A stretch of DNA of 64,000 nucleotides. Origin: Mytilus edulis. Its lineage: Eukaryota. The notes under the pieces were generated by a model that ran no database searches, was not told the origin of the DNA, and saw nothing but the letters and a program-made list of their open reading frames with translations. This document shows positions 1 to 37,686 of this stretch, piece after piece. Within the stretch, counting starts at the first letter, position 1; the number at the start of each line of letters is the position of its first letter. A program made the position numbers and the translations under genes. The DNA lies in assembly GCF_963676685.1 (NCBI RefSeq), contig NC_092346.1, positions 47,988,001 to 48,052,000 of the forward strand. Direction: 5' to 3'.

Positions 1-200
1 ATGGATTTTCTTATCCCAGGCATAGATTACCTGAGCCATATTTTGCAAAACTTTTTTGGATTTTGGGTCCTCAATGCTCTTCAACCTTGTATTTGTTTGA
101 CTTAAGAACTTTTTTGATCTGAGCGTCTGATGAGTCTAATGTAGACGAAACACGCACTTAGTGTATTAAATTTTAATCATGGTATCTTTGATAACTATTT
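1..200 (+). mobile_element. Fragment of the hammerhead repeat family
   Basis: CTGATGAGTCTAATGTAGACGAAAC at 127-151 with a decayed cleavage site; flanks match 3370-3520 and 4023-4075. Confidence 0.7.
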
Positions 201-247
201 CCTATTTGGTTCTATATTTAAACAATAATCTGAATAAATCATGAAAA

Positions 248-1801
248 CTACATTACATTGTACAAGGCACACTCATCCTCATCACACAAAAGTAACATTT
301 GTTTGTCTTTGTTGTAGTGCAATGACATTGGATTGATTAAACCATCAGTTTTGGATAGAAGTGTTCTACTCGACTTCCCGTCATGTTGTATAACTATCAG
401 AGATTTCGACCCTTGATCAATAACAAATACATTTTGATGATCATCCACAGTGCCATTAGTGCTGACTAAAGCTGCCTCCTTACGACCCCACATTTCTTCA
501 CCTGTCATTGAAATACAATGTACAGTATGGTCTCTTGTGTTGGTAACATACATTCTATCATTGGTGGTTCCTATGTATGCCCCACAACTTGAGTTAAGTT
601 TTTTTAGTACTTTTCCCGCAATATTTGTTATAACAATGCAATTTTGTATTCTAACGATAAAACCTATGTTGTCCTGGTATGATATACCAAAGCAGCGGCT
701 ATTTAATTTAATTCTCTGAATGTTAGTTTTGTTCTTTATATTCAAAATATCTATGTAACCATCGCTTCTATTTCCATAAGTAACAGCAATACTTTCAGCG
801 TCCATGACTGTTACATCAAATGTTGGTTTCGAACATGGTATGTCCCGGATATGTTTACCTTTCTCACTATACTCCATCAGTACGCTGTGTCCGTAAAAAT
901 TAGATATCAACACATTACCATTTGTTAACATTGTACATCCAGTCATCAACAGCCCCACGAAGTCTTTTTTCACTTTAAATCTCTTTTTCAATCGCAAATA
1001 AATGTTATCAATACTTTTCATATCGGACACTCGAAGCGGTATCTGGACTTGATCTACATTTGATCCCTTGAACGGTAGACAGGTTGTAGTCTTTTTAAAG
1101 AATATGTTCCCGAGCTGAACAACTTCATTCATTAACGTGGTGATAGTAGTGTGTAACTGTAAGTATATTTCATAGTTCGGTACTGACTTGATTCTTTCTT
1201 TTACGGCTTCTACCTCTGTGCTGACTGTTTCATTAATCTGACGCGTTCCAAAGAAAAGGTGAAGGTCGGATGCGAATGATTTCAATTGCAATGTTTTCTC
1301 TCTCAGACAACCTAAATTTTGTTCTGATTTTTTCAGACGGTTTAGAAGTTTGTTTGGTTCGGATTTGCAGTTATTATGTTTTGTGTCTAATTCAAGAAGA
1401 AGATTGTTTTCAAATTCCTCCAACTTTTTCACTAGGCTAAAGGTTAAAGTTTCCTCTTAATCAGCCAGGGCAGTTGAACGTTTTGCATTTTCAGCAGCTT
1501 TATCTAAAGGAATGACATCAGAGCATGCCCTATGACGAGATATACAACCTAAACATACTGCAACATCATGTGTTTTACAGTACAGCCTGTCGTGGTCTTT
1601 ACACTTAAAGCTGACAGTAATATTTTGTATCTGCCGGAAGTCTTCAATGGAGATAAGCCTGTGGTTACGTGAAGTTTTGATAGATTTATGAACCTTTTCA
1701 CAATCTGCGCATAATCCCTCTTCACAAACTGTACACCAGCTTTCTGCGTTTTTCTCATTTTTTGTATAATTGCAGGGACCGCAAAGAATCAAATAGGACA
1801 T
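248..1801 (-). pseudogene. RING-less TRIM-like (B-box x2, coiled coil, NHL-like propeller) copy 1, with one in-frame premature stop
   Basis: ORFs 1457..1801 and 248..1432 are in the same frame. The junction reads ALAD*EETLTFSLVKKLEEF, with TAA at 1457-1459 where paralogs have Leu. About 35 aa of coiled coil are deleted in frame relative to copy 4. AG acceptor 10 nt upstream of the ATG. Confidence 0.85.
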
Positions 1802-2277
1802 AGTTCAATGCCTGTTGAAAAAAATGTGTTACTTAATGTATTATTTACTTTAATTTTTTTAAATGGCATACAAAATTGTAGAATAACAAGAATACAGAAC
1901 TCTTAAAAAAATTGAAACATCAAAAGATCAAACACATCAAACATGTGGGAAATTCCAGATTTGGTACAGACATTTCCTTAGCATAACAACACGATGACGG
2001 ATGTATGATAAACAAGCTACGGCAAAATGTATTACAAAAAAGGACAAACAGTCAAGGTTAAAAACTATACAAAGACTAATAAAATGAACCCAATAACACA
2101 TAAATTAGATGATTAACAACATCAGTACCCAGCATGTATACTTTTAGACCATTATGTATTATTTGTGAAGTTGATATTAATCAACAAGGTCTTAGTATCT
2201 TCCGATTACAAAAAGGAAGTTTTATAAAGTCTGGGCAGCAGCTGCAACTCTTTCTTGAATACCGCATAAGTTGGGAA

Positions 2278-2565
2278 AGAAAGTAGAATCACAAAAATAC
2301 TGAACTCCGAGGAAAATTCTAAACGGAAAGCCCCCACCAAACGACAAAATCAAAGGATAAAACGCATCGAACGAATGGACAACAACTGTCATACTCCTGA
2401 CTTAGCACAGTTTTTTTCAAGTGTAAAAAATGGTGGATTGAACCTGGTTTTATAGCGCTAAATCTCACACTTGTACGACAGTCGCATCAAATTTAATGAT
2501 ATTGATAATGATGCGTGAACAAAGCTAACAGATATAATAGGTAAAAATGTCACAAATAAAGGTAA
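2278..2565 (-). repeat. Abundant SINE-like interspersed repeat (copies near 11800, 16080, 34735, 38440, 43450 and 51330)
   Basis: Recurrent block AAAATACTGAACTCCGAGGAAAATTC...ACAACTGTCATA.TCCTGACTTGG in both orientations. Confidence 0.6.
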
Positions 2566-3369
2566 AAAGTTTAGTTCGGTAGGTTTTGTTTTCAACCGAC
2601 CCTAATAGTCAATTTCTAGATATAAATCCTAAACGAAGTGATAACAACTAATACAGATGAAATTGGTATACTACTGCTAAGGTAGGGGAAATTAATAATT
2701 ACAAAATTAAAAAAGGTCGCGTTTGTTGTAGATTTTAAAACTTGCATGACCAATTATGTCCAATTACAGGTTAAGTCTAAAAATGAGGTTGAGTAAGCCG
2801 TGTCTTCCCTTAAATTTCTTGTTTTGAATATTATATCAATGGAACGCAATCAGAAAAAGTTTTGATTGTTGATATTAAGAACATCATCAATATACCTGTT
2901 TTTGGAATTAAGTGATCTAACGCATTTGATATCCTTGTTTTAGCAAGTGTCTGAAGTAGCTCCGACTAATAAGAAAATAAGAAGAGGTCGTCAATGAGAG
3001 GCACACAGTTCTGTTCCATAGGACTGACGCAATTTTTTGAAAAAGTGTATTTCTATATTTAACAAAGATATTACGAAACTCCAGCATTCTGATAAGTTGT
3101 TCTTTGGTGTAGTATCTTGTAGATTTTTAAATGGTACCATTTTTATATTGTAAAGCATAGTGGATTATTAATTATTTAGACGTTTTATCAATTTGGCATT
3201 GGGAATGATGATATTGCGGGTTGAAAAATGAACGGTTTTGATAAAATGTATTTCCAAAAAAGATCGAGATTCAAAATTATCAAGAAGTTTTTTTCCGAGG
3301 TTTTTAAGAGTCGCATATGCTAAAAACGACGATGCGAATAAACTACACACTTTTGGATTCATCGAAAAA

Positions 3370-4075
3370 CTAAGGATTTTCTTATCCCAGGAAGAAATTA
3401 CCTTAACCGTGTTTGGCACAACTTTTTGGAATTTTGGATTCTCAATGCTCTTCAACTTCGTAATTGTTTGGCTTGATAAATATTTTGATATGAGCGTCAC
3501 TCATGAGTCTTATGTAGACGAATAGTTATCAAATGTACCAGGATTATAATTTAGTACGCCAGACGCGCGTTTCGTCTACATAAGACTCATCAGTGACGCT
3601 CATATCAAAATATTTATAAAGCCAAACAAGAACAAAGTTGAAGAGCATTGAGGATGCAAAATTCCAAAAAAGTGTGCCAAATACAGCTAAGGTAATTTAT
3701 ACCTGGGATAAGGAAATCCTTAGTTTTTCGAAAAATTCAAAGTTTGTAAACAGGAAATTTATAAAAATGACCACATTATTGATATTCAGGTCAACACCGA
3801 AGTGCTGACTACTGGGCTGGTGAACTCGAGGACGAAACGTCCACCAGCAGTGGCATCGACCCAGTGGTGTAAATAGTTATAAAAAGTACCAGGATTATAA
3901 TTCAGTACGCCAGACGCGCGTTTCGTCTAAATAAGACGCTCATATCAAAATATTTATAAAGCCAAACAAGAACAAAGTTTAAGAGCATTGAGGATCCAAA
4001 ATTCCAAAAAGTTGTGCCAAATACGTGCGTCTGGCATACTAAATTATAATCCTGGTACCTTTGATAACTATTTAC
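3370..4075. mobile_element. Hammerhead-containing retrozyme/Penelope-type repeat cluster (351-nt period), with a nested inverted copy
   Basis: Minus-strand hammerhead motifs repeat at 3561 and 3912, and a plus-strand copy is split between 3522 and 4023. Confidence 0.75.
3556..3599 (-). ncRNA. Minimal type I hammerhead ribozyme (subfamily A, intact)
   Basis: GCGTCA CTGATGA GTCT-TATGT-AGAC GAAA C-GCGC-G TC^TGGCGT: stem I, CUGAUGA core, stem II, GAAA, minimal stem III with a palindromic loop, and a GUC cleavage site. Confidence 0.85.
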
Positions 4076-6554: not shown

Positions 6555-8225
6555 CTACTCAAAATTGTATAGGGCAGCACACTCATGGTTGTTGCACAAG
6601 AGTAATACGTTTTTTTCTTTGCTGTAGTGTAATGTTTGCGGTTGATCTAGACCATCAGCTTTGGTAAGTATCGTTTTACTAGAACTCCCGTCATGTTGAA
6701 TTACTACTAGAATTTTAGATTTGATATCTACAACATAAACATTTTGATGATTATCAACAGTGATTCCCTTAGGACCCACTAAAGATTCCTCCTTATGCAC
6801 CCATATTTCCTCACCGGTCATGGAGATACAATTTACGGTTTGATTTCTTTCGACTGTGAAATAAATTCTATCCACAGCGGTTTCTAAGTATAATCCACAT
6901 TCAACATCTAATTTGCTCAATACTTTCCCCAGCATATTAGTTATTACAATGCCATCTTCGATAACAACAAACAAGTTGTTATTCTTATACGATATTCCAT
7001 AGCATTTGCTTTTTAGTTTAGCTCTCTTCTCAATCGTATTATTCTTTATATTGCAAATCTCTATGTATTGACTTAAGGAACCATATGTAATAGCAATACG
7101 GTCAGAATCAATGACTGATATATCAAACGGAGATCCAGATAATTTTATGGTACGAATATGTTTACCTTCTTCATTATACTCCATCAGATTATTGTCTCCT
7201 TTATAATCAGCTATCAACACACTACCATTTCGTAACATGGTACATCCCGACAACCATGTTAAAAAACTTGTTTGTTTCACTTTGAATCTTTTCTTCAACT
7301 GGATACCTATTTGCTTGATACTTAAGATATTTGGCTCAAGAAGCTGTATTTGGGCCTGATCTGCCTTTGCTTCTTTAAACGACAAACAAGTGGTAGTCTT
7401 CTTAACGGAAATTTTCCCGAGCTTATCTACATCATTTTTTATCAACATAATTGTAGGATTTAACTTTAAAAACATTTCATAATTCTGTATATACTTAATC
7501 CATTCCTTAACGGACTCTATTTCTTTAAACACAGCTTTATTGATCTGGCGCGTTCCCAGGAAAAGCTGAACTTCGGATGCGAATGATTTCAATTGTTTTG
7601 TTTGCTTTCTCCAACAACTTAAATCACTTTCACAATTTTTAAGACGAGTTAGAAATTTGTCATTGTCGGATTTACAATTACCATATTTCTTGTCTAATTC
7701 AAGGAGTAGTTTGGTCTGTAAGTCATCCAACTTTTTCATTATTCTTGCTCTTGTATCATTTATTGTATTTTTGATATCTTGCCTCTGGTCATTCAACAGT
7801 TCCATAGCCGAAACACAATCGGTAATGATTTGCTGAAGGTTATGTAACGTGCTTGAAAAAGTGTCCTTTAAATCAGACAATGCAACCGAACGTTTAACAT
7901 TTTTAGCAGCTTGATCTAAAGGAATGACATCAGGGCATGTCATGTGATGAAATGGAATGCAACCTAAACAAACTGCAATATCATGTGTTTTACAGTACAG
8001 TTCAAGTTGCTTATCGTGATCCTGACAGTCAAGATTGACAGAACTATCTTTTATTTGTCGGTAGTCTTCGATTGATATAAGCCTGTGATTTCGTGATGAT
8101 TTTATAGATTTGTGAACCTTTTCACAATCTGCGCATAACCCCTCTTCACAAACTGTACACCATATCTCTGCGCTTCTATTCTCTTTGGTATAACCACAGG
8201 GACCACAAAGAATAAATTCCGACAT
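6555..8225 (-). CDS. RING-less TRIM-like protein copy 2 (intact, 556 aa)
   Basis: B-box1 CGPC..WCTVCEEGLCADCEKVH..H and B-box2 CQDH..YCKTHDIAVCLGC..HH, then coiled coil and beta-propeller repeats (PFDISV, PKGITVDNHQNVYVVD, GLDQPQTL). Single coding exon; TTTTTCAG acceptor 10 nt before the ATG. Confidence 0.92.
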   Translation of the reverse strand: MSEFILCGPCGYTKENRSAEIWCTVCEEGLCADCEKVHKSIKSSRNHRLISIEDYRQIKDSSVNLDCQDHDKQLELYCKTHDIAVCLGCIPFHHMTCPDVIPLDQAAKNVKRSVALSDLKDTFSSTLHNLQQIITDCVSAMELLNDQRQDIKNTINDTRARIMKKLDDLQTKLLLELDKKYGNCKSDNDKFLTRLKNCESDLSCWRKQTKQLKSFASEVQLFLGTRQINKAVFKEIESVKEWIKYIQNYEMFLKLNPTIMLIKNDVDKLGKISVKKTTTCLSFKEAKADQAQIQLLEPNILSIKQIGIQLKKRFKVKQTSFLTWLSGCTMLRNGSVLIADYKGDNNLMEYNEEGKHIRTIKLSGSPFDISVIDSDRIAITYGSLSQYIEICNIKNNTIEKRAKLKSKCYGISYKNNNLFVVIEDGIVITNMLGKVLSKLDVECGLYLETAVDRIYFTVERNQTVNCISMTGEEIWVHKEESLVGPKGITVDNHQNVYVVDIKSKILVVIQHDGSSSKTILTKADGLDQPQTLHYSKEKNVLLLCNNHECAALYNFE

Positions 8226-10004
8226 GTTGTTATATCTGAAAAATGCATATTTTTTATCAATTTACAGACTGTTGCTATGATTAGAGATAAAATGGTATAA
8301 GATCATTTAAACATAGAACTTAAATTTGGCCTCAAATAATCTGTTTTTGCGTTTGTCTGTCATGTATGATCGAAATCGTATTAGTATTTGAAATTCATTG
8401 ATTGTTGCCCGATATGACGTGCATGACCAGGCTTCAATCCGGACTATTTCTGTTCGCAACGAGTTTATTTTTCTATGTCATGTACGAAAATGATAATTAG
8501 TTAAAAATATTTATTGTTTTATTTTCTCATAGCTTGTATATATATTTAATAATAGTAGCAATCGATATATTTATTAATATAAGACATATTAACAAGTGAC
8601 AAAATATTTCAAAGACTAGAAAATCTTAAACCATTTGTCATCTAAATACCAATCCAAACAATTATTATGATTTTGAAATATATAACACAAATTTTGGCCG
8701 GTTTCATGTTTGATAAAACGTAATTTTACCTTTCGAAAATTTACCTCATTTATCATAGAATTTCGATAATGTTCTAAACAATCATTTATTTTGAAATAAA
8801 ACTAATACAACATGTCCACTGAGAGTTGTTTGCTTGAATATTCGAAAACATAGCACATAAACTAAAAAGTATAAATTAGAAATAGATAAATAAACTGATA
8901 ATAATTATTTAGAAAGAGGTTTATTGGAGCTTTTGGAATACACAGCAATAGTTTGTATGGACACATATGTAGTTTAAGTATCCAATACAGTAATGAAAGG
9001 CCCAGTTTATCGTCTTGGATTGAAAGAACTGTTAAAATGTTATTTTCGACTCGTCTCTAATACATAAGGAGTACATAACTCGCGATTGCCTCTAAAACTG
9101 GGCAGCAAATTTTTACTAGACATTATCTGGATATATGAAAAAACAAAAGTTTATCATCCAATACAATTTCAAATGACTTCAATCCTCTGTGAAATCTTTC
9201 AGCTTTGTCTTTGACGAAAAAGTACTCACCAGAGATATATTTCTTAAATCTCTATTTCTCAAGTTGGATTCATATTGAATAAATTCAATTGAAAATTACC
9301 AAATAGTTTTGATATAAAACCTTCAATAAGACGTGAATGTATGAAAATGAAATAAGACTATGAAAACAAATTCTTCATCAAAATGTAAACAAGTGTCAAA
9401 TATATACATGTATATGTTTATGAAAATATTATAAAAATGTGCCATTTTTTGTATAATGTCTTCTTCACACTACCATTTACATAGTTTTACAATGCATAAT
9501 TTCGATGTGTGCTAAATTACCTTCAATGTCAGCTAATATGGCAGCATCCACATCATCATAAATCCCACATTATCCAACAGATGTCACCAAGAGATACACT
9601 ATTTAAAAGTGCGCAGAAATATATCGTAAAAAATTGACGACATAGGTAATTTATTGTTTTTATCAATCAATGTAATGTTGCAGTTGTTTTTGAAATAAAT
9701 TCAATACTTCGATTTTGATGCATAAAAAAAAGTTTCCGATTTCATTCATATATTTGAGTCATTAAGTTGCTGTTAACTTAAAGTATAATCCAATCTTTTA
9801 ATAGTCCCAATACATACCCTGCTGTCGTTTTACCTGATTCCTTGTTTGTCATTTTTCCAAGCATACATGTACATGCAACTCAATTGATTTTAATGATAAA
9901 AGAGCCAGGTGAAACTCCGCTCCAAAAACAATACACGTACAATCTAATCATTTGAATATCAGTTTATAAGATTGAGTCATTTGAAGAAACGTGTATACAT
10001 AATA

Positions 10005-10929: not shown

Positions 10930-12180
10930 TCATGCAGACCCAAATGGCGACATGGTCAACCAAGTTACACAAAATTAATAGTTTTTTGTCTTTGTCGTTG
11001 TGTAATGCGTTTGGTCTTTTCATTCCATCACTTTTATTCGGTAATTTTCTACTGGATTTCCCGACTTTTGTACTACTGTTAGTACGTTTCACTTGGCATC
11101 AACATTAAACACATTTTGATGATCATAAAATGTGTTGACTAAAGAAGAATCCATATTATGTACCAATAATTTCTTACGGATATGCAATTCACAATTTTTT
11201 CTGGTTCTACGATAACGTATATTCTATTTATTGTAGTTTCTTAGTATAATCCACTATCAAATGTGGTCAACACTCATTCTTTATCATCTGTTACGATAAT
11301 ACCTGGTACAAGAGTAAACATGTTATTGTCTAGATATGATATTCTGTAGCATTCGTTTCGACATATTTTTTTCTTCATTAGTTTTGTTTTTTTATATTCC
11401 AAATCTTCATATATTTACTAGAAGACCAATATGTAACATCTATACATCCAGTGTATATGACAGTGAAATGAAGCAGGTGTCCAAGGCGTATTCATGGATT
11501 ATGTATACCGTTCTCTATACAGAATCATTGTATCCTCTCCGTAATAATCGGCTTTTAACAAGTTACCATTTGGAACATTTAATATGCAGATAGGCACATG
11601 AAGTTATTATATCATATCTTTTCTTATAAAATCTATATTTTTAACTGGAGACGGACTTTATTAACCGGATCTACGTCCGCCTCGTTAAATAGTAAACTTC
11701 TGGTAGTTTTCTAAATGGATATTTCTTCCATCTGATCAACATCGCTATAAAAACAAGTTTATTGCACAATTTTCTCTATATGCAAATACCTGAACTAAGT
11801 TAGGAATATGAGAGTTGTTATCCATTCGTGTGATGTGTTTGAACTTTTGATTTGGCGGTTTAGTTAAGGGTTTTCGTTTTGAATATTCCTCGGGTTTCAG
11901 TATTTTGTTCTGATTTTACTTTTCATTCATTTTCGACATGCTAGTGGCGTGTAACTGTAGATACAGTCACATTTCTTCAAAGACTTGGTTCCGTTGTTGT
12001 AATATTTTATCTGTTTGAAAGCTGCTTCATTAATCTGACGTGTTACTAGAAAAAGTCGGATGCGAATGATTTCAGTTGTTGTGTTTCAACTTTAAAACAC
12101 CCGAGATCTTGTTCCCCTTGATGTTTATGAACTTTCTCACAATCTGTACATACCCCGCTTAACAAACTGTACACGTATTC
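10930..12180 (-). pseudogene. Heavily degraded TRIM-like copy 3 relic
   Basis: Propeller C-terminal remnant GKSSRKLPNKSDGMKRPNALHNDKDKKLLILCN (ORF 10850..11092), QLKSFASD/TRQINEA remnant near 12020-12080 and B-box1 remnant near 12120-12175. Many frameshifts and a large deletion; boundaries approximate. Confidence 0.75.
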
Positions 12181-15749: not shown

Positions 15750-16060
15750 ATATAGATATTTCGTATTGGTCAACCAAATGAATATGGCGTCCATAACATT
15801 GTGATATGGATGACATATTCTTTATCAGTTTCAACCCTGGGTCAAAAGCTTCCTCGCAAACAGCAGTTCTATATCAAGTTAATATAACGATGAAAGGCAA
15901 ACACCGTAATGTCATGTAATATCATATGAACTTGGAGGTTAATACTCCATATGCAGTTGTGACCGGAATGTTGCTACACAGAAAGAATGGGTTAAGATGG
16001 AAACATTGAACTAATCTTTTGTGTCCTTAATTTCCCAATCAACCCTATTGGTAAATATCA
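15750..16060 (-). mobile_element. Degraded Penelope-like (PLE) reverse transcriptase fragment in an SAA intron
   Basis: Translates FLCSNIPVTTAYGVLTSKFI*Y, RKLLTQG and YGRH, resembling the PLE RT C-terminal motifs FPFLCSNIP..PAYGVYISQLIRY / RKLL.QG / KFYGRH (recalled consensus). Confidence 0.6.
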
Positions 16061-16400
16061 ATATAGTTAAATTGTTTGCCACTGTCATACTGTTGAGAGG
16101 TATTTCTAGTTATAAAACCAGGTATAAACCACCTTTTCTACATATAAAAATGTCTGTAACAAGTCAGGAATATGACAGTTGTTATCCATTGGTTTGATGT
16201 ATTAGAGCTTTTTAGTTTGTCATTTCATCAGAGACTTTCCGTTTAGAATCTGTATTTTGCTTATTTACTTTTTTCTTTACATAGGTCAAGAAAATTAATA
16301 GAATAAACAGCTTCTGTGTTAATTATATTTTATTCAAAGTTCACGGGATTAAAACATCGATGAATATAGCCGTTGACTCTAAAGGAAATCACCTATTAGC

Positions 16401-18129: not shown

Positions 18130-18832
18130 ATCCCTAGCCGTATTTGGAACAACCCTTTTGAACTTTTGATCCTCAGTGCTGTACAACTTTGTACTTTTTT
18201 TGATTTTCGAATTTTTATGTCTTGGCGTCACTGGTAAGTCTTGTGTGGACGAGGCGATCTTATGGCGTTTTAAATGTTAACCCTGATGCCCTTTGTGAGC
18301 TATTATTCGTGTGTTTCTTTGTCTAATATGTTCCATTTAATTGTATTGTTGACCTATAATGTTATGTTGTCATTTTGATGTCATATTTAACATTGCCATT
18401 AAAACGCGAGGTTTGGCATGCCACAAAACCAGGTTCAACCCACCATTATTCTCTTTAAAAATATCAGGAATATGGCCATTGTTATATTATAGTTCGTTTC
18501 TGTATGTGTTACATTTTAACGTTGTGTTTCCGTTGTGTCGTTTGTTTTTCTCTTATATTTGAGTATTACTTCATATTACTATAAGACGTGTCACGGTACT
18601 TTTCTATTCCAAATTCATGTATTTGGTTTTGATGTTATATTTGTTATTCTCGTGGGATTTTGTATAATGCTAAGTCCGTTTCTGTGTGTGTTACATTTTA
18701 ATGTTGTGTCGTTGTTCTGCTCTTTTAATATATTTAATGCGTTTTCCTCAGTTTTAGTTTGCTACCCCGATTTTGTTTTTTGTCCATCGATTTACGGTTT
18801 TTGAACAGCGGTATACTATTGTTGCCTTTATT
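18130..18832 (+). mobile_element. Same composite repeat family as 24681-25623
   Basis: Shared blocks AAAACCAGGTTCAACCCACC and the 3' end GAACAGCGGTATACTATTGTTGCCTTTATT. Confidence 0.7.
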
Positions 18833-22879: not shown

Positions 22880-24529
22880 TTAATCAAGAGCGTACAAATA
22901 GCCCCCGTTATTATCACACAAAAGTAACACTTGTTTCTCGTTGTTGTAGTACAATAGACGTGGCTTGTCTAAACCATCAGTTGTTGATAGTAATGTTCTG
23001 CTTGACTTCCCGTCATGTTGTATAACTATCAGCGAATTCGACCTTTGATCAACAACAAATACATTTTGATGATCACCCACAGCAATGCCCCATGGATTAG
23101 TTAAAGATTTTTCTTTACGTATCCATATCTCATCACCTGCCATTGAGATACAATGTACAGCGTCATCGACGGTGAAATAAATTCTATCTTTGGCAGTTCC
23201 TAAACATGACCCACATCGAACGGTTAACGATTTCAGTACTTTTCCTCCGACATCAATTATGTCAATGCCCTCTTGTGTAATCATTACAATTGTGTTGTCC
23301 TGGTACGATATTCCATAGCAATGTTCTTTAAATTGAAATAATTTTCCCTCAACAGTAGTGTTGTTTATGTTTAAAATCTCTATGCACCGATTGTCGCGTG
23401 TAACAGCAATACGGTCAGTGTCTATGACTGTCAAATCAAACGGTTCACCAGAGCAAGGTATGTCACGGATATGTTTACCATCTTCACTGTACTCCTGTAC
23501 TACATTCTTACCAGCTATTAACACATTTCCATTTGGTAACATGGTACATCCAGTCAAAATCGTTTGTCGATCTTTTTGTTCGACACTAAATTTCTTTTTC
23601 AACTGGAGACGAATGCTATGTATGCTTTTTGTATCTTGCACTCGAAGTTGTATTTGAGCTTGATCTACATTTATCTCCTTAAACAATAGACTGGTGATAC
23701 TCTTCTGAACTGATATGTCCCCGAGCTGATCTACTTCATCCATTAACGCGATGATATAAGGATTTAACTGTACGGAAACTTGAAAGTTCTCGGCAGACTT
23801 GATCCCTTCTTTGACCGATTTTATTTCTTTGAAGACTGCTTCATTGATCTGGCGCGCTCCAAGGAAAAGCTGAATTTCGGATGCGAATGATTTCAGTTGA
23901 GATGTTTGCTCCTTTAGACAACTCAACTCTCGTTTTGCGTTTTTCATACGGTTTAGAAGTTGGTTTACTTCCGATTTACTATTTTCATGTTTTATGTCTA
24001 ACTCTTGAAGAAGTCTTCGTTCTAAGTCTTCTAACTTTTTCAGTATTCTCGCCCGTGTATCAATGATTGATTTTTTTATGGTTTGCTTTTGACTTTCAAA
24101 ATCCTTAAAAGCTGTCTCACGATCGGTAATGATTTGTTCAAGATTTTGTAATGCTCCGGTTAAAGTGTCCTCCAAATCAGTCAGTGCAGTTGAATGTGTT
24201 GCATTTTCAGCAGCTTTGTCTAAAGGAATGACGTCAGAGCAAGCCCTATGATGAGATGGAACGCAACCTAAACAAACTGCAACATCGTGTGTTTTACAAT
24301 ACAGTTCAAGCTGCCTTTCGTGGTATTTACAATTAAGGTTAACAGTGATATTTTGTATCTTCCAGAAGTCTTCAATGGATATCAGCCTGTGATTTCGGGA
24401 TGTTTTGATAGATGTATGAACCTTCTCGCAATCTGCGCATAGTCCCTCTTCACAAATTGAACACCATTTTTCTGCGTTTTTATTATTTTCTGCATAACCA
24501 CAAGGACCACAAAGAATCTTTTCAGTCAT
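22880..24529 (-). CDS. RING-less TRIM-like protein copy 4 (intact, 549 aa from MTEKILC)
   Basis: Same architecture as copy 2. The start at 24529 is inferred from paralog alignment (MxEKILCGPC) and the TTTAACAG acceptor 10 nt upstream. Confidence 0.92.
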   Translation of the reverse strand: MTEKILCGPCGYAENNKNAEKWCSICEEGLCADCEKVHTSIKTSRNHRLISIEDFWKIQNITVNLNCKYHERQLELYCKTHDVAVCLGCVPSHHRACSDVIPLDKAAENATHSTALTDLEDTLTGALQNLEQIITDRETAFKDFESQKQTIKKSIIDTRARILKKLEDLERRLLQELDIKHENSKSEVNQLLNRMKNAKRELSCLKEQTSQLKSFASEIQLFLGARQINEAVFKEIKSVKEGIKSAENFQVSVQLNPYIIALMDEVDQLGDISVQKSITSLLFKEINVDQAQIQLRVQDTKSIHSIRLQLKKKFSVEQKDRQTILTGCTMLPNGNVLIAGKNVVQEYSEDGKHIRDIPCSGEPFDLTVIDTDRIAVTRDNRCIEILNINNTTVEGKLFQFKEHCYGISYQDNTIVMITQEGIDIIDVGGKVLKSLTVRCGSCLGTAKDRIYFTVDDAVHCISMAGDEIWIRKEKSLTNPWGIAVGDHQNVFVVDQRSNSLIVIQHDGKSSRTLLSTTDGLDKPRLLYYNNEKQVLLLCDNNGGYLYALD

Positions 24530-24680
24530 GTTGAAATACCTGTTAAAGCATATATATATTCTAGATGTATTTGCATATCTATTATCAAAAAGTATATATA
24601 CAAGCATTCATTTCTGAATTTCTCTTTTTTTATGTCTGTTTTGTGATAGAAAATTCGGAGTGACCCATCGACTCTCGATG

Positions 24681-25623
24681 TACAACTTTGTACCTTTTTC
24701 ACTTTCGATCTTTTATATCTGGGCGTTATGAATTCAAGAGTTAGACATAAAGTTGTACAACTTTGTACCTTTTTCACTTTCGATCTTTTATATCTGGGCG
24801 TTATGTATTCAGGTTTAGTTTTCTGTAATTAGTTAATACTTCAGTTTCTTTATGTATATCTCTTTCATCTTCATTTGATAAAATTTACTGTTTGCAATAG
24901 CATGAATTGTTCTATATAATAAGAATGTTCTTATCCCGGGCGTAACAAACAATGCCGTATTTGGCGAAACCTTTTCAACTTTAGATCTTCAGTGCTGTAC
25001 AACTTTGTACTTTTTTCACTTTCGATCTTTTATATCTGGGCGTCACTGGTGAGTCTTGTGTGGAAAAGGCACGTTTTTGGCGTATTGAATTTTAAACCTG
25101 ATGCTTTTTGTTACCTATTAATCATGTTTTTCTTTGTCTAATATGTTATCCTATTTATTTGTATTGTAGTCCTGTAATATTATGTTGTCATTTCAATGTT
25201 ATATTTAACTTTTTTTTTAAAGTGCGAGGTTTGGCATGCCACAAAACCAGGTTCAACCCACCACTTTTATTCCCCTTTAAAGGTGTCCTGTACCAAGTCA
25301 GGAAGATGGCCATTGTTATATTATTGTTCGTTTCTGTGTGTGTTGCATTTTAACGTTGAGTCATTTGTGTTTTCTCTTATTTTTGAGATATTGAGATAAG
25401 ACGAGGCACGGTACTTGTCTATCCCAAATTCATGTATTTGGTTTTCATGTTATATTTGTTATTCTCGTGGTGTTTTGTCTGATGCTTGGTCCATTTCGGT
25501 GTTGTGTCGTTGTTCTCCTCTTATATTTAATGCGTTTCCCTCGGTTTTAGTTTGTTTACCCGATTTTGTTTTTTGTCCATGGATTTATGAGTTTTGAACA
25601 GCGGTATACTACTGTTGCCTTTA
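24681..25623 (+). mobile_element. Composite non-autonomous repeat with a degenerate hammerhead module, flanked by 41-bp direct repeats
   Basis: Direct repeats at 24640-24680 and 25624-25664; 3' hairpin AACAGCGGTATACTACTGTT followed by GCCTTTATTT. Family copies near 18130-18830, 27780-28262 and 37150-37686. Confidence 0.75.
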
Positions 25624-26067
25624 TTTGTGATAGAAAATTCGGAGTGACCCATCGACTTTCGATGATTGTAAAATTGACAATCCTAGTCAATTAAGGTTGC
25701 ATTCGCCAATGGTGACAGGAGAATAGAAGTATCGTCACTTAAGTCCGCAGCTTCGTCTTGTCCAGAAGTGAGCATGTTTAATCCCATGCCTCCGTGTAGT
25801 AGTGTCAAGCTGTTTACGTGTAAAACAACTCTGAGGATTCGCCTGTTGCGGAGCAAAATTCCCATCCCTTTATAACATATCATAATTAACCTGCGGCAGT
25901 CCAAATTACCAAGACCTTCATTGTGGATTACAAAACATACCTTTTGGAAACATTAAGAAATGTTGGGTCCGGTATTCTCTTCTTCCTTGTACTGTATTTG
26001 GCTTTGATTGACCTTATAGAATCGAGCGTCACTGAAGAATTTTTTGTACACGAAAACGCATTTTTAA

Positions 26068-27777: not shown

Positions 27778-28262
27778 TTTATTTGTATTGTAGTCCTGTA
27801 ATATTTTGTTTTCATTTCAATGTTATATTTAACTGTGCCATTAAAGTGCGAGGTTTGGCATGCCTTAAAACCAGGTTCAACCCACCACTTTTATTCCCCT
27901 TTAAAAGTGTCCTGTACCAAGTCAGGAAGATGGCCATTGTTATAATATTGTTCGTTTCTGTGTGTGTGTTGCATTTTAACGTTGAGTCGTTTCTGTTTTC
28001 TCTTATTTTTGAGATAAGACGTGGCACGGTACTTGTCTATCCCATATTCATGTATTTTGTTTTGATGTTATATTTGTTATTCTCGTGGTGTATTGTCTGT
28101 TGCTTGGTCCGTTTCTGTGTGCTGTTGCGTTTCGGTGTTGTGTCGTTGTTCTCCTCTTATATTTAATGCGTTTCCCTCGGTTTTGGTTTGTTGCCCCGAT
28201 TTTGTTTTTTGTCCATGGATTTATGAGTTTTGAACAGCGGTATACTACTGTTGCCTTTATTT
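27778..28262 (+). mobile_element. 5'-truncated copy of the composite repeat family
   Basis: Near-identical to 25155-25625. Confidence 0.7.
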
Positions 28263-29139
28263 ATACAAATAGTTATACATGAGTCATGATCACAGGAGAC
28301 CCAGAGAAACATTACATATTACTTCTGATGGTTAGGAAGGACAACATGCATTAACCCACGATAAAAGCTAAACATGGACAGCACATTATAGAACAACATA
28401 AAATTCTATCATATTAGTCTTAAATCATTGTACTAGGGTAAATTAATAATACGCGTAAAATGATTCATTGATTGACCTACATCAGAAATGTTCATATCCG
28501 AATATTTGAAACTGAAGGATGTAGAACCGAAACAGTTCAAAAGCTATAACCAAATGAATTTCAGACAAGAATTACCTGAGGGAATTATACCTTTTTCTTC
28601 TGAATAATTTTAAGATTTAATACTTACAATTTACGAAAGGCTAGTTGTTAATCATGTCAGAACCGAAGTACTGATAACTAAGCTTTTGATACCATTGGGG
28701 ACTGATCGACCCCTAGCAAATTTGTCGTCCAAGGGCCAAACATGTATAAATAATGAAAACAACTATACACCTTTTTTAAGAGGCAAGCTGAATCCCAACT
28801 CCTAGTGTTTGATTTTCTAGATGTGTTGAAGACCCATTTGTGGCTGTTTTCTGTACATAAGTTGGGTTATTATATCTTTGACACATTTCCATTCTCAATT
28901 TTAAAGCTTTTGAAATAAATAAACTAATGACTTACTATCAGTAACTGCGAATACTCTCAGTTCTGTACGCTGTGTTTTATGTTAGGGATGTATAAATACC
29001 CGGTCTGAGGTTTTCTAAAATGTTTTTCTGCTTTAAAAACAATCTAATTTAAGCCTTTTTCAACTGAAATGAAAAGTGTGTTCATATGTTATACTGTTAC
29101 ACCACTGTCCCAGGTTAAGGGGAGTTTGGCGCCTTCAAA

Positions 29140-29280
29140 TAGTTATTAAAGGTACAGGGATTATATTTTAGTACGCCAGACTCGCGTTCCGTCTACATAA
29201 GACTCATCAGTGACGCTCATATCAAAAGATTTATAACGTCAAGCAAGTTAAAAGTTGAAGAGCATTAAGGTTCAAAAATA
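29140..29280 (-). mobile_element. Fragment of the hammerhead repeat family (GAAA mutated)
   Basis: Close match to 3523-3660; the core reads CTGATGA...GGAA. Confidence 0.7.
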
Positions 29281-31589
29281 TCTAAAAGGTTTTACCCTGC
29301 AACATTGTCTACATGCCTGTCCACGTCCACACGCCTATACTTCAGTGGTTGTCGTTTGTTCATGTCTGTCATATTTGTTTTTCGTAAATTGTTATATTAC
29401 AAATTAGTCTATTAGTTTCCTAAATAGAGTTGTTTTATATTTTCTCACAATTAAGCTTCCTACCAAGAGTCGCTATTTTGTTGATCGCTATGGAATTTCT
29501 GTTTTATAGATAATAATTGCATTCCCTTTTCCCCGAATGTGAATTATTACCGGGCTTGTACTTACATGAGCAACTCGACGTATGTGACATGTAGAGCAGG
29601 ATTTGCTGACCCCTCTGGAGCACATTAAATCACCCCAGATTTTGGCGGGATTCATATAGCTCCGACTATATTTTTTTGTTTTCTTTATTGTTGTTTGTTT
29701 GCCTTTTTCTTTTTTAGCCATGGGGAGATTAGGTTATTTTCGACTTATAAATTTGAATGTTTCTCGGATATCTTTTGCCTATCTTTTTCGTGTCGGGGTC
29801 TTTAAAAATTGATTGCTATGCGATATGTTTTTTTCCGCATTTTTGAAGGCAGTACCATTGCTTATTATTGCATTTGACATGAAATTTAATGGATATAATG
29901 ATATAATTTTTTTCTCATTGTAGATACGATTGCCTTGTATTTCTCACATATACTTCATATGAACATTGACACTCATACCACATCTGTTTATATCTATTTC
30001 GAAGATACCTCGCATTGGCAATCAGAAAAAACCTCTTTATTGAATATTTCTTGTTGTGGTTTTATTTCATGTACTTATGATTTTTTGTGATTAAACCTAT
30101 TCCAATAACATGAATGTATAATTAAAATAAAAAATCATTTTATTTATTTAAGAAGTTTAAAATCAATTATTTCGTTTTAACTGTACTAATCTATCACTTT
30201 TACATCACGCAATACGCGATAGGTGTATATCTGAAACACATTCATTAACATTCTGCAATATATACTAGTATCATATACTAAGTCTTTCGTTTTCTATGTT
30301 GTATGTTCTGTAATATTGCCTGTTTGTCTTTTTATTTAGCCATGGCGTTCTCAGTTTATTTTCAATTTATGAGTTTTACTGTCCCTCTGGTATCTTTTGT
30401 TCCTCTTTCAATTTATTTAACAATTCATTTTCTCTGATTGTTAAGTTTTCTGCCCTGTAATACAATTGTTTACCCCAAACTTTACAAAATCTATTTTAGA
30501 ACAGTTATCATTAACTATGGTTTTCCAACAGAAATTTTAAATAAGTTTCAAAATGTAAAAGATATTAGAAACAAAATCATTTCATGATAGTAATTTTTTT
30601 TAACATTTTAGGTCGATCATTTGTTTTTCAGAGGTAGTGCAACATATTCGTTTAATAAATATTAGATTTAAAATCAAAACGTAGGCTGGTCAGGCAAGTG
30701 CGTCCTTTAACCCAATACAGGACGAAAATGATTAGTTGTCCATCATGTCAAATAAAATGCACAACTGTGTATAAAATCGAAAATATAATTTGTCTGCAGG
30801 AGATAAATAATTATTTTCTAAGTTATTTCTGTAACTAGCATCAATTTTATTTTAAAAATGTATACAAAATAAATGCAAAATCAAAGACCACGTGGCTATT
30901 GGCTATTAAAAGTTTAAATCGTTTGTAGATGTGTGAAGAAAACCAGTAAAATCAATGATTTCATACATTTTGATAACTTTTGCTTGTGACCCTAAATATC
31001 CATATCAGTTATTAAAATAGAAAAGATTCAAGATAAAGATAACCAGATTATTATATAATCACTCCTATCATGCACCTAGGTTTTGAAAAAAAGTTTGTCT
31101 TTTTCATTTTAAGCCAGGTTGTTGTCAGTTTATTTTTCGATTTATGAATTTGACTGTCACTTTGGTTTATTTTGTCCCTCTTTGAAAACAAACTATGTCT
31201 GCAAATCTGCATTAATTTATTAATTCTTTAAAAGTTTACTGAACAATTTGCCGTAATGTTCATTCTTCAACCGATTATTCGTGCTAAATATTTATAAGTA
31301 GAATTAGTCAACTACATCATTGTAAAACTAGATGGATTTACAAAAACAAAATGCATGAGAGCGTGAGATATATTTAAAAAAAAATATTGCATTTTTTACT
31401 ACCTTAAAAGAAAATTGTCAAAAAGATTAACGATAAAGTTATTCAATACTAAATAAGAAAAAAAAACCAACAATATTAATGAGCGTCCTTCAGTCAGGTT
31501 ATTTCAAATCAGAAAAAAATGTACACTAATTGTAGTTATGCATTGTTTTAACTATATCAACATTTTCAAATTAAAAAACATTATAAAAA

Positions 31590-33231
31590 CTACCAAAGTG
31601 TGTACAAGGCGCACCCATTATCTTCACACAAAAGTAACACTTTTTTCTCTTTATTGTAGTGCAATGAACGTGGAATGTCTAAACCATCAGTTGTTGAAAG
31701 TAATGTTCCACTTGAGCTCCCGTCATGTTGTATTACTATCAGCGAATTCGATTCTGGATCAATAACAAATACATTTTGATGTTCATCCACAGCGATGCCC
31801 CATGGGTTAGATAAGGATTTTTCTTTACGTACTTATATCTCATCACATAACATGGAGATACAATGTACAGCGTTATCGAAGGTGAAATAAAATATATCTT
31901 TGGCAGTTTCTATGTATGACCCACAATGAACGGTTAACGTTTTAAGTACTTTTCCTTCAACGTCACTTATTTTAATGCCATCTTGTGTAATAATTATAAT
32001 TGTGTTGTCCGTGTATAATATTCCATAGCTATCTTCTTCTGATTCAAATTTGTCCTCAATCGTATTGTGTTTCTTTAAAATCTTTATACACCGATCTTGA
32101 TATGTAACAGCAATACGATCACTGTCTATTACTAATAAATCAAATGGACATCCAAAGCATGGTATGTCACGAATACATTTACCGTCTTCGCTGTACTCCA
32201 TTAAGACATTCTTATCGACAGGAGCAGCTATTAACACATTTCCGTTTGGTAACATGGTACATCCAGTCAGACCTTTGTGTTCGACACTTAATCTCTATTT
32301 CAACTGGAGTCGAATGCTATTAATGCTTTTTGTATCTTGCACTCGAAGATGTAGCTGGGCTTGATCTACATTTATTTCCTTGAACGGTAGACTGACGGTT
32401 GTATTTTTAACTAATAAGTTCCCGAGCTGATCTTCTCCATTAATCAACGCCATAATAGAAGGATTTAACTGTAAGTGAACTTCATAGTTCTGTACAGATT
32501 TTATTCCATCTTTGATTATTTGTACTTTTTCGAATAATGTTTTTTTTATCTGACGCGTTCCCAGGAAAAGCTGAATATCGGATGCGAATGATTTCAGTTG
32601 TGATGTTTGCTCAATCAGACAATTGAAATCTCGTTTTTGCATTTTTAGATTGCTCCAGAAGCATGTGCACTTCTAATTTACAATTTTCATGTTGCTTTTC
32701 TAATTCATGAAGTAATGTGTGCTCAAAGTCATCTAACTTTTTCAGTATTTTGGCTCGTGTTTCATTGATTGTATTATTGATGGTTTGCTTATTATCTTAA
32801 AAATTTGTCAACGCTGACTCACGATCGGTAATGATTTGTTCAAGATTTTGTAATGTTCCTGTTGATGTGTCCTCCAAATCAGCCAGTGCAGTTGAATGTT
32901 TTGCATTTTCAGCAGCTTTATCTAAAGGAATGACGTCAGAGCATGTCCTATGACGAGATGGAACGCACCCTAAACAAACAGCAACATCATGTGTTTTACA
33001 GAACAGTTCAAGTCGCTTGTCATGGTCTTTACAGGTAATGCTGATGGAAATATTTTGTATCTGCCGGAAGTCTTCTATGGATATCAGCCAGTGATTTCGT
33101 GATATTTTGATAGATTTATGAACCTTCTCGCAATCTGCGCATAATCCCTTTTCAAAAATTGTACACCTTTTTTCTGCGTTTTTATCATTTCCTGCATAAC
33201 AACAAGGACCACAAAGAATCTTTTCAGCCAT
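31590..33231 (-). pseudogene. TRIM-like copy 5 pseudogene
   Basis: Stops at 32797, 32295 and 31833 (Trp in paralogs), a +1 frameshift near 32635-32640, and a B-box1 Cys replaced by Phe (RCTIFEKG). Confidence 0.9.
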
Positions 33232-36200
33232 GTTGTAATGCCTATTGAAAAATATTTGTTAAAGAAATTATTATGAAAATAATGTAAAATAGTTTTTTTT
33301 AAAATTTCACTTTACTTTCATGTCTGCCATTTATTTTTAGGATAGGAAACCGGTTTCCCGGAAAGAACCACCGACTATTGGATTTAAACATGGCAATCCA
33401 AGACAAATAAGATTCCTTATCCTATAATAGTGATAGTAGAATAAAAATATTGTCACATAGGTACTCAGCCACGTCCCGTCAGGATGAAGGATGATTAATC
33501 CTTGTACTTAATTTAGCCTTGTTTGACTAGATTGACTAGAGGGTCACTGGTGAGTCTATGTAGACGAAACCCGGATCTGGCGTACACAATGTAATCTATG
33601 TATATATGATGAACTACCTTTTAATTTCATTTAATACTGAACATGTATGAAACATTTGACACTGGACATTAAGCGAATAACAATCAGTCAATTAAAAATG
33701 GAGTTTAACACACGTGCCACATGCGGACTCTAACTGATAACCGTAGCGATACACTTGATGAACTCATTATACCACTCGGCTTTCGAGGCTCTCGTGTCTA
33801 ATCGAAGTAGTGTAATGATTACATCTTATCAAATATGAATTATTTATATCATTTGCTTAACAATCAATGCTTATGTATTGACATTATCTATATCAAACAT
33901 GTCTTAAATTGTCTGCTATTAATGAATTAAGAAAGTGATTTAACAAATTCCCCAGGCACAGCTGACGTTGGTTTTATGTGGCTGTTATTATTGGTTCGTT
34001 TTGGTTATATAGCTCTTCATGTGTTTCGGTACTAATAAAATCTTGACAATATTTTGGCTCTGAGCGTCCCTTTCAGTTGGATTTATGTGTCGGCCGCGTT
34101 AAAATTATAAAGTGAATTTTCATTTATTTTTTGGCTATGCATATTTTGATTAACTTTATGAATATTTTCATTGATGTGGCTATGCGTATTTTTTATTAAT
34201 TTTTTGAGAAACATGCAATGAAAGGAACTGGAACTTGATACATTTTTTTCCAAGACCCTGAAGTGAAAATTGATATAAATAAAATAAAGCCGAACTAAAC
34301 TAAAATAAGTATCAATCCTACAACTGGTATTTTTTCTAAACCAAAATCCTGAAACATTTTGTTTTTGTAGCATAGTCAGCGTCATCTGTTATGACATTTT
34401 CTCGTGTCGTTATTGTAAGAGTTTCCATGAAATCTCCCAACTTTCACTTATAATTTCTTCTGGTATAATGTCATATATGAGTCTCTAAGAAAACGTTTTG
34501 AAAAGCAACTTATTGTGTAGACTGTTCTTGCTAAGTTGCTGTCTTATTAACAATACCTTCATCTACCTTTATTAATAGAAATAAGCATTCAAGTCACAAT
34601 TTGTAAACAAAGAAAACAATTAAATGTTAAAGTACGGCCTTTAAACGGAGACCTGGCTCACACTGAACAGCAAGATATAAAGAGACACTAAATGACTATT
34701 TGAACAAATTAAAAAAGGATAATCAACGGTGAAAAAAGTAAAATCACAAAAAAACTGAACTTAGAGGAAAATCAATTCGGAAAGTCCATAATCACATGGC
34801 AAAATCAAATTACAAAACGCATCAAAAACTAATTGACAAGAACTGTCATATTCCTTACTTGGTACAGGCATTTTCAAATGTAGAAAATGGTGGATAAAAC
34901 CTGGTTCTATAGCGCGAACCCTCTCACTTTAATGACAGCATCATCAAATTCCGTTATATTTACATTGATGCATTAAATAAACAGACACAATAAATAAAAT
35001 AGTCAAAATATGGGTACAATTTAATTTGCAATTTTAAAAGGAACAATTTATTAGAACACAAAAAATGTCTACTATCTACGAACACATTCATTGATTTAAG
35101 TGTCTGACGTCAGAAAATTGTATACGTCCCATTAATTTGTCGTTCAATGTGCATACAAACAATATGTTTAAAAAAATCAGAAACAATTATATACCACATC
35201 AACAATAAACAACCACTGAACAACAGCTTAAATGACTGACGTAGGACAGTTGCTAAAAAATGCAGCAGGGGGGGGAACATTTTAAAAGGTGCATATCAAT
35301 CGAAAATCTTAACTTGACAAAAAAAGTCTTCTCAAACAAGTAAACATACACTGTACGAATAAATTTGATTTATGATATGATTAAAACAAAAAGGGGATGT
35401 AAAACAATGTCAAAAAGACATCTGAAACCTGGAAAAAATGAGATTTTGTTTGTTTGGTTAATTCCAGTTGCTGAAAGCAAATGCATATCATTTTGGGAAA
35501 AAATTGCAGTAAGATTTTTTTTTGGTTCAGGGTGAGAACAGTTTAATAAAATAGTACTTAAGTTAACAGATATTAAAAAGTGAATCGCAAAATTGAAGGA
35601 CGCACAAAAACAAAGATATGTTGAGATGCAAAAAAAAAGCATCATATTTTAATAACCACCGACAATTAATGGTAAAATAGAGATGCTAGTTTCGAATCGG
35701 TAATGCAGCAACACCAAGACACAAACAAACACACAATGATATCTAGCGATCAGTTGTATTTTTATCTTATCTATCCTACTTTTTTTGTGGGAGTGTTGGT
35801 TGTAGGTGCAGGGTATTTGTTTGAAACGAACACGGCGTTCGTATTTGATATCGTTTGCTATTTAACATATGTTATCAAAACCGAATCAAAAGACAATATG
35901 ATAAAAACTTTAACAAACAAAAATTCAAAATAAAACCAGGAAGAATATCATTCAATGAAATTCCCAGTGGTACTGTGAAAAAATTTAAACATACATCTCG
36001 ATATACATGGATTTAAACGAATGACTTGTCCTAACCTATTAGCATAATATTTGCTATTCAAATTTATTTTGTTTAAATACCTTTGATATCTTCTGAGAAT
36101 GGCATCAATTACGTCATTTTGTTGACAGTGATAAGTCACGTGATTACACACAAATTTCGACTTGGTACTTGAAGATCCTTGAACACAAAATGTACTTTAA

Positions 36201-37149
36201 AAAGCCGGAAATATCAAATGTATGAAAGAATTTAGTTATAAACGATCTATTTGAAGGGTTTTTCCGACCAACAATATATTTTATACAAATAGGCAAAACA
36301 AAACATAATACTATCTCAGAAGACATAAAGAAAAGCCTTATTTTGCTTAAAAGAAAATTTAAAAAAAGTACATAGAAATTCAATTCACAAAGGTGTTCAG
36401 TAATAACACAACAAAAAAGGAAAAGGATTTAGTGAGATGAGATACAAGACAGAGTTAAAATTGCAAAGATACAATCAGTAACAATCTCGTTTGAACTCAT
36501 GGATACCTTCAAAAACTTTTTTCAGTTAGAACATTAAATATGATGACGAAAACAATAGTCTTTATTAAAACTATTCTAATCAACTATGTTTTCAAATGAT
36601 ATTGAGCTGAATGTTGATGTAATATTTAGTAACGATTGTTTTACTGCGTGATAATTATACACTCAAATGGATTACCATTTTAGTCTCCAAGGTATCACAC
36701 TGTCACAAAGATAAATGTATTATAAAAAATAACCAGCGCCTAACCAGGACCTAAGTTTATCTATAAACTCACCATAATTATGCACGATTTTGTTAACGTT
36801 TTAGCGTGTTTTTAAGTGTGTAATTTCCTGTTCCAGATGCCTAAAAAATATAAACTTTTGTTAGTTTTCACTGTTATTAATATAAGTTAGATGAGTCATA
36901 AAAATCTAATCTTGAATTTCATCCAAATTCTCTTAATTTTCTGAACACGTTTTAGAAATTTATATTTGACGTCACTTTGGGCGTTGCAATGACTATGGCT
37001 AACAGGGCCGTGATTTTGTAATGTATTCGTTTTCTATTCTATAGCTAGTCACCACTTCAGTTTAATCATGTTTACCTATTATATAGTCATTTTATAAAAT
37101 TAACTGTTTGCAAAACTATGTATTATTCTTGATAATGATGATGTTTTTG

Positions 37150-37686
37150 TCCTAGGCGGATAACCCTGGCCTCATAAACTTTTGGAACTTTTGGTCCCCG
37201 GCGATCTTCAACTTGGTATTTGTTATGGCTTTCAAACTTTTAACATCTGTCTGAGCATAGTTTTGTGTGGACGTAGTGTGCGTCTGGTGTATAAAAATAT
37301 TGTTTAACCTGTTACCTTTGGATGGCTATTATTCGTTTGTTTATCTGTCCTATATTTTCTTCCATTTATCTGTTTATTTATTGTACACCTGTCGTGTAAT
37401 ATTGTCATTTTAATGTTATAACTAACACTGTCATTAAGCGAGAGGTTTGGCATACCACAAAACCAGGTTCAATCCACCATTTTTTCATACAATTCCCTGA
37501 ACCATGTCAGGAAAATGGCCAATTTTACATTATAGTTCGTTTCTGAGTGTGTTACGTTTCGGTGTTGTGTCGTAGCTCTCTTATATTTGATACATTTCCC
37601 TTAGTTTCATTTTGTAACCCGGATTTTTTTTTTTTCTCTATCGATTTATGAATTTTGAACTGCGGTATACTACTGTTGCCTTTATT
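37150..37686 (+). mobile_element. Diverged copy of the composite repeat family
   Basis: Same internal blocks and 3' hairpin end. Confidence 0.65.

Follow-up and report, generated by a model that had tools for sequence, protein, structure and literature searches.

The window, by which we mean the whole 64,000-nt stretch of Mytilus edulis DNA analysed here, carries a small non-coding insertion at 3523-4024 on the minus strand. It lies inside an older copy of the same family on the opposite strand, upstream of a TRIM-like gene. The features on which the analysis draws are as follows.

3..200, plus strand: older 5'-truncated relic of the family with the same fixed end (sequence comparison).
248..1801, minus strand: TRIM-like (B-box, beta-propeller) gene copy 1, a probable pseudogene (stop, deletion, almost no reads).
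3344..3522, plus strand: left piece of an older family copy that is broken inside its hammerhead (sequence comparison).
3523..3561, minus strand: 39-nt tail from the cut site to the family's fixed 3' insertion end, the putative RT start (shared end of 58 of the 61 young copies; loose ends of reads whose flanks are mixed).
3523..3873, minus strand: full retrozyme unit from one fixed end to the next, 351 nt, against 353-356 nt in the family (family matches).
3556..3599, minus strand: intact minimal type I hammerhead with a predicted cut between 3562 and 3561 (sequence; RF00163, 33 bits, E 3.1e-6).
3811..3865, minus strand: Naiad-type bulged start hairpin, unit positions 9-66 (homology to a hairpin upstream of the ATG in three Naiad families).
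3874..4024, minus strand: 5'-truncated upstream partial unit (151 nt) with a dead hammerhead, its cut site between 3913 and 3912 kept (sequence comparison).
4023..4072, plus strand: right part of the older copy, with the rest of the hammerhead and the tail (sequence comparison).
24881..25626, plus strand: 3' end of a Naiad family B element; in the UTR lies an old retrozyme-like segment whose hammerhead is dead (sequence comparison).
29137..29291, minus strand: older 5'-truncated relic with the same fixed end (sequence comparison).

Read on the minus strand, 3599-3556 forms a complete minimal type I hammerhead, with a 6-bp stem I, the CUGAUGA core, a 4-bp stem II, GAAA and a 2-bp stem III capped by a palindromic GCGC loop. 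The Rfam model Hammerhead_1 aligns to exactly this interval, one bit under its gathering score of 34. Thus, the search with hammerhead models proposed in the first-pass annotation placed the motif precisely but stopped short of the gathering score, and at the gathering threshold nothing in the whole window rose above the cut-off. A loose hammerhead core pattern matched 6 times in the window where 3.8 matches are expected. Because this is chance level, the evidence for the ribozyme is the full motif and its recurrence; of 92 units in 27 arrays, 72 carry this motif intact. The cut site of the upstream hammerhead lies at a distance of 351 nt, and 11 nt including its CUGAUGA core are deleted. The annotation had described just such a pair of minus-strand motifs 351 nt apart, one intact and one at 3912 without its core, and this description is confirmed. 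Since one of the two cores is deleted, a 351-nt monomer would not be released here by two ordinary cuts. Free folding gave no signal for the 66-nt motif (z 0.01) or the 351-nt monomer (z -1.5). Matches to miRNA families at the E-value threshold were discarded, as they arise from a 171-bp inverted repeat at the locus and lie below the cut-off.

The unit at 3523-3873 differs from the family majority by 13 substitutions and 2 gaps. Its hairpin is damaged by a 3-nt deletion and two substitutions, and the predicted fold departs from that of the family. It had been proposed that the unit is bounded by ribozymes and extends over 3523-4022. The start at 3523 holds, but the insertion reaches 4024 and ends 39 nt past the cut, so that ribozymes do not form its borders. 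No ORF of 120 aa or more is present at the locus. No RT or GIY-YIG ORF adjoins the retrozyme there, and the flanks differ from array to array; for these reasons we rejected an identification as the pseudo-LTR of an autonomous Penelope-like element (PLE).

The family is large. Among 40 scored of 5355 candidate loci there are at least 74 other near-full matches with 92-95% identity, many of them in head-to-tail arrays of up to 19 units of 353-356 nt. Arrays of 9-19 units lie at L141 (G000:C6), L142 and L143 (C7), and L119, L126 and L135 (C14); two of these, L142 and L143, lie 70 kb from each other and are duplicates in inverted orientation. The units are non-coding, AT-rich, tandem and without LTR, and by eye they have no PBS or PPT. 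The window holds about ten relics of the family, and fragments occur in three of five unselected 10-kb stretches of the genome. Copies differ from the majority by 2.5% on average. Units differ by 1.5% within arrays and by 4.9% between arrays, in a comparison where two array pairs are duplicates; these were excluded from the later variant count. In that count, 258 of 310 within-array variants are private and 52 are shared with other arrays, whereas 60 of 102 array-fixed variants are shared among arrays. Private variants within arrays and shared variants across them fit repeated copying of one template or later tandem growth. In two diverged relatives, the hammerhead and the hairpin are better kept than the body.

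The unit is homologous, by eye, to the printed 375-nt retrozyme of M. galloprovincialis (PMC4918200, Additional file 11) in hammerhead, hairpin and body. In that species about 5000 hammerheads are described in 350-390-bp repeats, with self-cleavage near 0.1/min and abundant circles (PMC7229834). The similarities to this non-LTR retrozyme include unit size (350-390 nt, with a 353-nt clone named, compared with 353-356 nt here), tandem arrangement, AT-richness, a type I hammerhead and, by eye, the body. The printed 375-nt sequence differs in that it belongs to a sister subfamily with another tail. A sister subfamily with an identical hammerhead and a different tail, in agreement with the published sequence, is also present in this genome (L039, L069, L080, L162) and in the reads. 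The family copies together with this homology bear out the assignment of the locus to the mussel non-LTR retrozymes; judged from sequence, the element is of a known kind and probably belongs to the published mussel family. The earlier idea that the hammerheads need a dimer to cleave is not established, as a cloned mussel repeat is reported to cleave co-transcriptionally at about 0.1/min (PMC7229834). Most invertebrate retrozyme hammerheads are described there as cleaving efficiently (Cervera 2020).

The family is well represented in RNA. Reads were mapped onto one permuted family unit and onto 230-3340 only, in runs that may come from related species. At 88% likeness, 6336 of 8.7 M, 7303 of 8.3 M and 3757 of 12.7 M reads matched the unit in three runs. 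Two of these runs have a strand bias of about 5:1 inside the unit but of about 1:1 on a dispersed Naiad fragment; the third run is unbiased. If the libraries are of the usual type, this bias probably means RNA of the ribozyme strand. Joints between units are abundant, with 522 and 382 reads at the main joint, and they fit circles and multimers alike; read ends do not pile up at the ribozyme cut site. Because joints are common and no such pile-up is present, circles and uncut multimers look the same in the reads.

The insertion ends provide the first clue to the mechanism of spread. From 101 de-duplicated arrays and fragments we dropped 9 (at a locus edge or shorter than 40 nt), which left 61 young copies that are at least 88% identical and 31 older ones. 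The stop point of 58 young copies is 39-41 nt beyond the cut, and no young copy stops at the cut itself; among the 31 older copies, 12 stop within this range. The query used to retrieve many of the young loci itself ends at the fixed site, but the stop point was recovered both with a query permuted away from it and from loose read ends whose flanks are mixed. The 5' ends are scattered, with no clustering at the hairpin. A bulged hairpin of 58 nt starts about 7 nt after the fixed end, and the flank begins with TT in 41 of the 58 junctions. No junction among the 58 carries a repeat longer than 7 nt, and two comparisons of filled and empty sites reveal no target duplication; an automated search among the examined loci found no empty site. 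Repeats of 5-7 nt are present in 12 of the 58 junctions, compared with about 2.6 expected in shuffles, and for this reason the lack of target duplication is not absolute. A fixed 3' end, 5' truncation and no long target duplication are the insertion anatomy of PLEs as described in PMC8557442. This anatomy fits an internal initiation by RT such as that reported for an anole PLE (PMC11167929). A cut monomer would have only about 40 nt upstream of the start site. For a longer copy the template would have to continue, as a circle or an uncut multimer, or the RT would have to jump between templates.

The second clue is the hairpin, which is shared with three families of Naiad PLEs. Their proteins of 1053 (A), 1007 (B) and 1000 aa (C) are 56-63% identical. 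The three have an N-terminal GIY-YIG domain, CxC and DKA motifs, a C-terminal RT with YIDD and no hammerhead core, so by the criteria of PMC8557442 we class them as Naiads, on motifs found by pattern and with Pfam RT scores below the cut-off. Intact young copies are present in the genome. In all three families, a segment homologous to unit positions 1-75 sits between the fixed end and the ATG. Its local scores are 42.5 in Naiad A, 51 in B and 94 in C; the shuffle maxima are 31-33.5, and none of 1000 shuffles reached the score in any family. In six stretches with C-terminal-endonuclease PLEs the hairpin is absent, with a local score of at most 24.5. The bulged hairpin is predicted to fold identically in Naiad C and in the retrozyme, and the predicted Naiad B fold is almost the same. 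In the hairpin alignment 98% of cells are paired and 7 of 23 pairs are changed on both sides, a count reached by 67 of 500 shuffles; the alignment has 8 distinct rows from only three lineages, leaves out Naiad A with its inserted arm, and uses a structure derived from the same sequences.

All four families stop at one distance from this hairpin. For 40 insertions of Naiad A, 67 of B, 58 of C and 55 of the retrozyme, the match to the family's own RNA stays at 0.84 or more until 7 nt from the stem. It falls to 0.44-0.70 at -6 and reaches background by -2; between 7 and 3 nt from the stem, the partial matches are to the sequence of the family concerned. Since the hairpin follows the fixed end of three Naiad families and is absent from the six other PLE stretches, we suggest that a Naiad RT is the likely mobiliser. 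The earlier proposal of a Penelope-like mobiliser is thereby supported, and the shared hairpin and common spacing narrow it to Naiad.

Naiad C has the closest hairpin match, including about 20 nt of the tail. It is compact, with a 3370-bp period and many intact 1000-aa ORFs, and is probably active now (L264-L268, L275-L305); 40 of 40 scored copies of its UTR are identical. Because this best match looks younger than the retrozyme copies, we name a clade and not a family, and the actual helper could be Naiad A, Naiad B or an earlier C. A closer partner may also exist, since the candidates scored were 150 of 858 for GIY-YIG and 150 of 4077 for Naiad. The retrozyme body does not score above shuffles against the UTRs of Naiad A and Naiad C. 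A 29-nt match to the retrozyme tail in the Naiad A UTR was rejected as a shared end, because it is a captured mini-insertion found in 8 of 30 copies. This piece of 27-29 nt marks a young Naiad A subfamily, in the 3' UTR (L062:590-618 in G000:C5; L081, L083-85, L087, L088, L091, L092); the empty site is an internal duplicate, and there is no target duplication. Fragments of one 5'-truncated repeat are found at 2277-2567, 11743-11922, 16058-16249, 34731-35019, 38439-38753, 43462-43698 and 51332-51545, and the copy at 2277-2567 matches the 3' end of Naiad A, with reads placing its fixed end at 2280. Frameshifted RT-like ORFs at 45254-47858 on the plus strand presumably belong to an element of LINE type, by motif reading.

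Naiad B shares more than the hairpin. A segment of its UTR resembles unit positions of about 63-358 at about 70% in both B subfamilies; it starts at the end of the hairpin and stops at the standard end. We favor the capture of an old retrozyme copy, since Naiad A has the flanking UTR motifs without the segment and the retrozyme hairpin is closest to that of C. The retrozyme may instead have originated by ORF loss from a B-like Naiad ancestor, but capture fits the segment better. Further Naiad B 3' ends lie on the plus strand of the window at 18132-18832, 27778-28262 and 37018-37689, and elsewhere at L191-L199 and L260-L263. In one subfamily the retrozyme-like segment is doubled as a 240-bp repeat.

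Taken together, we consider it likely that 3523-4024 is a damaged mussel retrozyme that was spread by a Naiad RT, which would bind the shared predicted hairpin and start about 7 nt upstream of it. Binding to the retrozyme RNA and priming on it by this RT are inferred from the sequence data. The cycle may run as follows. The family is transcribed, as the reads show at the level of the family, probably mostly from the ribozyme strand. The hammerheads would cut multimers into monomers that are ligated into circles, as published for the M. galloprovincialis family. The junctions suggest that the Naiad protein would next nick an AT-rich target and, helped by 2-5 nt of pairing, prime on the RNA at the internal site ahead of the hairpin. 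The template continuing upstream of the start site may be a circle, an uncut multimer or the product of a template jump. Repeated rounds of copying on a circle would produce arrays of near-identical units that stop at a fixed 3' end and have 5' ends at random points. This is the anatomy that the copies have, though uniform arrays could also stem from tandem amplification after insertion. We lean slightly towards a broader reading, in which the mussel retrozymes are circular, SINE-like parasites of ribozyme-less Naiads; they would copy the start hairpin of their host, its RT would roll round the circle, and they were perhaps born from a Naiad by ORF loss.

The nature of the template is the point at which another explanation survives best. 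A Naiad helper could instead copy an uncut linear multimer transcribed from genomic arrays, so that circles are a by-product and the hammerhead is dispensable for transposition. We regard this as possible but rather unlikely. Hammerhead mutations left the insertion of an anole PLE unaffected (PMC11167929), and folding energies predict a penalty of 9.5-11 kcal/mol for the hammerhead fold of a monomer. The missing pile-up of read ends at the cut site also speaks for uncut RNA, as does the sharing of 52 of the 310 within-array variants with other arrays, which is above a naive 5%. However, circles are the main RNA form published for mussels (PMC7229834), and the youngest arrays consist of near-identical units with array-wide variants. 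Moreover, the core is intact in 72 of 92 units, and two diverged relatives have kept the hammerhead and the hairpin better than the body.

The identity of the helper could also be questioned. If the mobiliser were a canonical hammerhead-bearing PLE of the Penelope or Neptune type, the hairpin would reflect ancestry or a promoter-like signal and not recognition by the RT. The genome does contain several intact C-terminal-endonuclease PLEs with minimal hammerheads of their own, and PMC7229834 argued for PLEs from the shared hammerhead. Yet in none of 20 stretches is the retrozyme tail the own end of such a PLE, the six PLE stretches described above are without the hairpin, and one spacing from end to hairpin is common to four families. 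We therefore find this explanation improbable. A search of the GIY-YIG loci for a hammerhead-bearing PLE with the retrozyme tail turned up only nearby retrozyme insertions. In several families of C-terminal GIY-YIG PLEs, the ORF is closely followed by a minimal motif of hammerhead type, its loop a palindromic CATG or GCGC (L061, L065-L066, L068-L073, L078).

We now return to the locus, where the 3523-4024 insertion interrupts, head-on, the ribozyme of an older opposite-strand copy. The outer pieces at 3344-3522 and 4023-4072 rejoin seamlessly, with no base lost or doubled. In the left piece 16 of 179 positions are unlike the family majority and the core is mutated. On the Naiad reading, a new copy would have landed in the older ribozyme and then lost one core and the integrity of its hairpin. 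The inverted flanks might alternatively be part of a single PLE-type insertion with inverted ends, as an inverted 5'-truncated copy is frequent in PLE insertions (PMC8557442). This is quite unlikely, because the two outer pieces form one copy when joined and have 18 differences in 227 nt, compared with about 4% for the inner units, with which they have only one variant in common. Two events are thus likelier than one, given an outer copy that is about twice as diverged.

The arrangement also has consequences for the ribozyme. The sequences at 3344-3522 and 3571-3741 pair as the 171-bp inverted repeat, and the antisense arm, which starts 40 nt after the cut, would pair with the hammerhead core. 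Read-through past 3523 into this arm raises the predicted folding cost of the hammerhead from about 11 to 50 kcal/mol, so by this model the inverted repeat would mask the intact hammerhead. With one core lost and the hairpin damaged, the 3523-4024 copy is probably inert.

The TRIM-like gene downstream belongs to a tandem cluster of B-box/beta-propeller genes on the minus strand, at 248-1801, 6555-8261, 10964-11578, 22880-24607, 31514-33266 and 40086-41780. The ORFs at 6555 and 22880 are full, and the other copies look broken. Copy 1 has an acceptor-like splice site at 1813-1812. Its reading frame breaks off after 114 codons at a premature stop (about 1459-1457), and about 105 nt are deleted. 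The depth over its coding part is less than 2 in one RNA run and zero in three, though missing reads could reflect tissue or species. Its first exon was searched for and not located, and an upstream block common to three paralogues is absent here, so the earlier placement of the ribozyme in the first intron of this gene is not confirmed. Given this stop and the near absence of reads, cleavage of a host pre-mRNA, which had been raised as a possibility, is unsupported: the hammerhead does lie on the gene's strand, 1.7 kb upstream of the acceptor-like site at 1812, and the intact core of a dimer could in principle cut at the site of the upstream copy, but the stop and the deletion, the low coding depth, the missing upstream block and the antisense arm 40 nt after the cut, which would pair with the core, make cutting of this pre-mRNA very improbable.

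Several known systems bear on the proposed mechanism. Naiad PLEs as described by Craig et al. 2021 (PMC8557442) resemble the retrozyme in 5' truncation, partial tandems, a fixed 3' end and abundance in mussels, and the hairpin after the end is shared. They encode a GIY-YIG/RT protein of about 1000 aa and have no canonical hammerheads, whereas the retrozyme is non-coding and has one. The words hairpin and stem-loop are absent from the main text of that paper, and the parts of the M. galloprovincialis retrozyme papers available to us describe no fixed end. The anole Poseidon PLE (Frangieh et al. 2024, PMC11167929) also ends at an internal RNA site downstream of the hammerhead cut and has AT-rich targets. 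Its start adjoins a stem-loop at the pLTR-ORF junction, and the retrozyme end likewise lies beside a hairpin. Unlike the retrozyme, with its one narrow site, Poseidon is autonomous, belongs to another PLE clade and has two start sites. Its RT starts at non-homologous DNA, whereas the retrozyme junctions suggest 2-5 nt of pairing. Vertebrate retrozymes have also been argued to be non-autonomous derivatives of PLEs (Li, Clavereau, Pollet 2026, bioRxiv 10.64898/2026.07.22.740005). That preprint, as far as its accessible part goes, is based on co-occurrence and Xenopus pLTR trees, and does not treat molluscs, junctions or a recognition signal. Within a search in which most subscription papers fell outside, PMC8557442 and this preprint are the only works naming both Naiad and retrozyme, and none ties the two by a shared hairpin.

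The locus itself is an ordinary decayed repeat. The result at the level of the family bears on the identity of the autonomous element that mobilises animal retrozymes, which the 2020 review (PMC7761336) treats as an open question, with no conserved motif said to point to a helper. The general origin of retrozymes from PLEs has already been argued in the 2026 preprint. Here, a 58-nt hairpin that is present in three intact Naiad families, at a fixed distance from the insertion ends, points to an enzyme and to its start site. If this is true, the hairpin would be a recognition signal of the Naiad RT, and it would be of interest for the targeted copying of circular RNAs.
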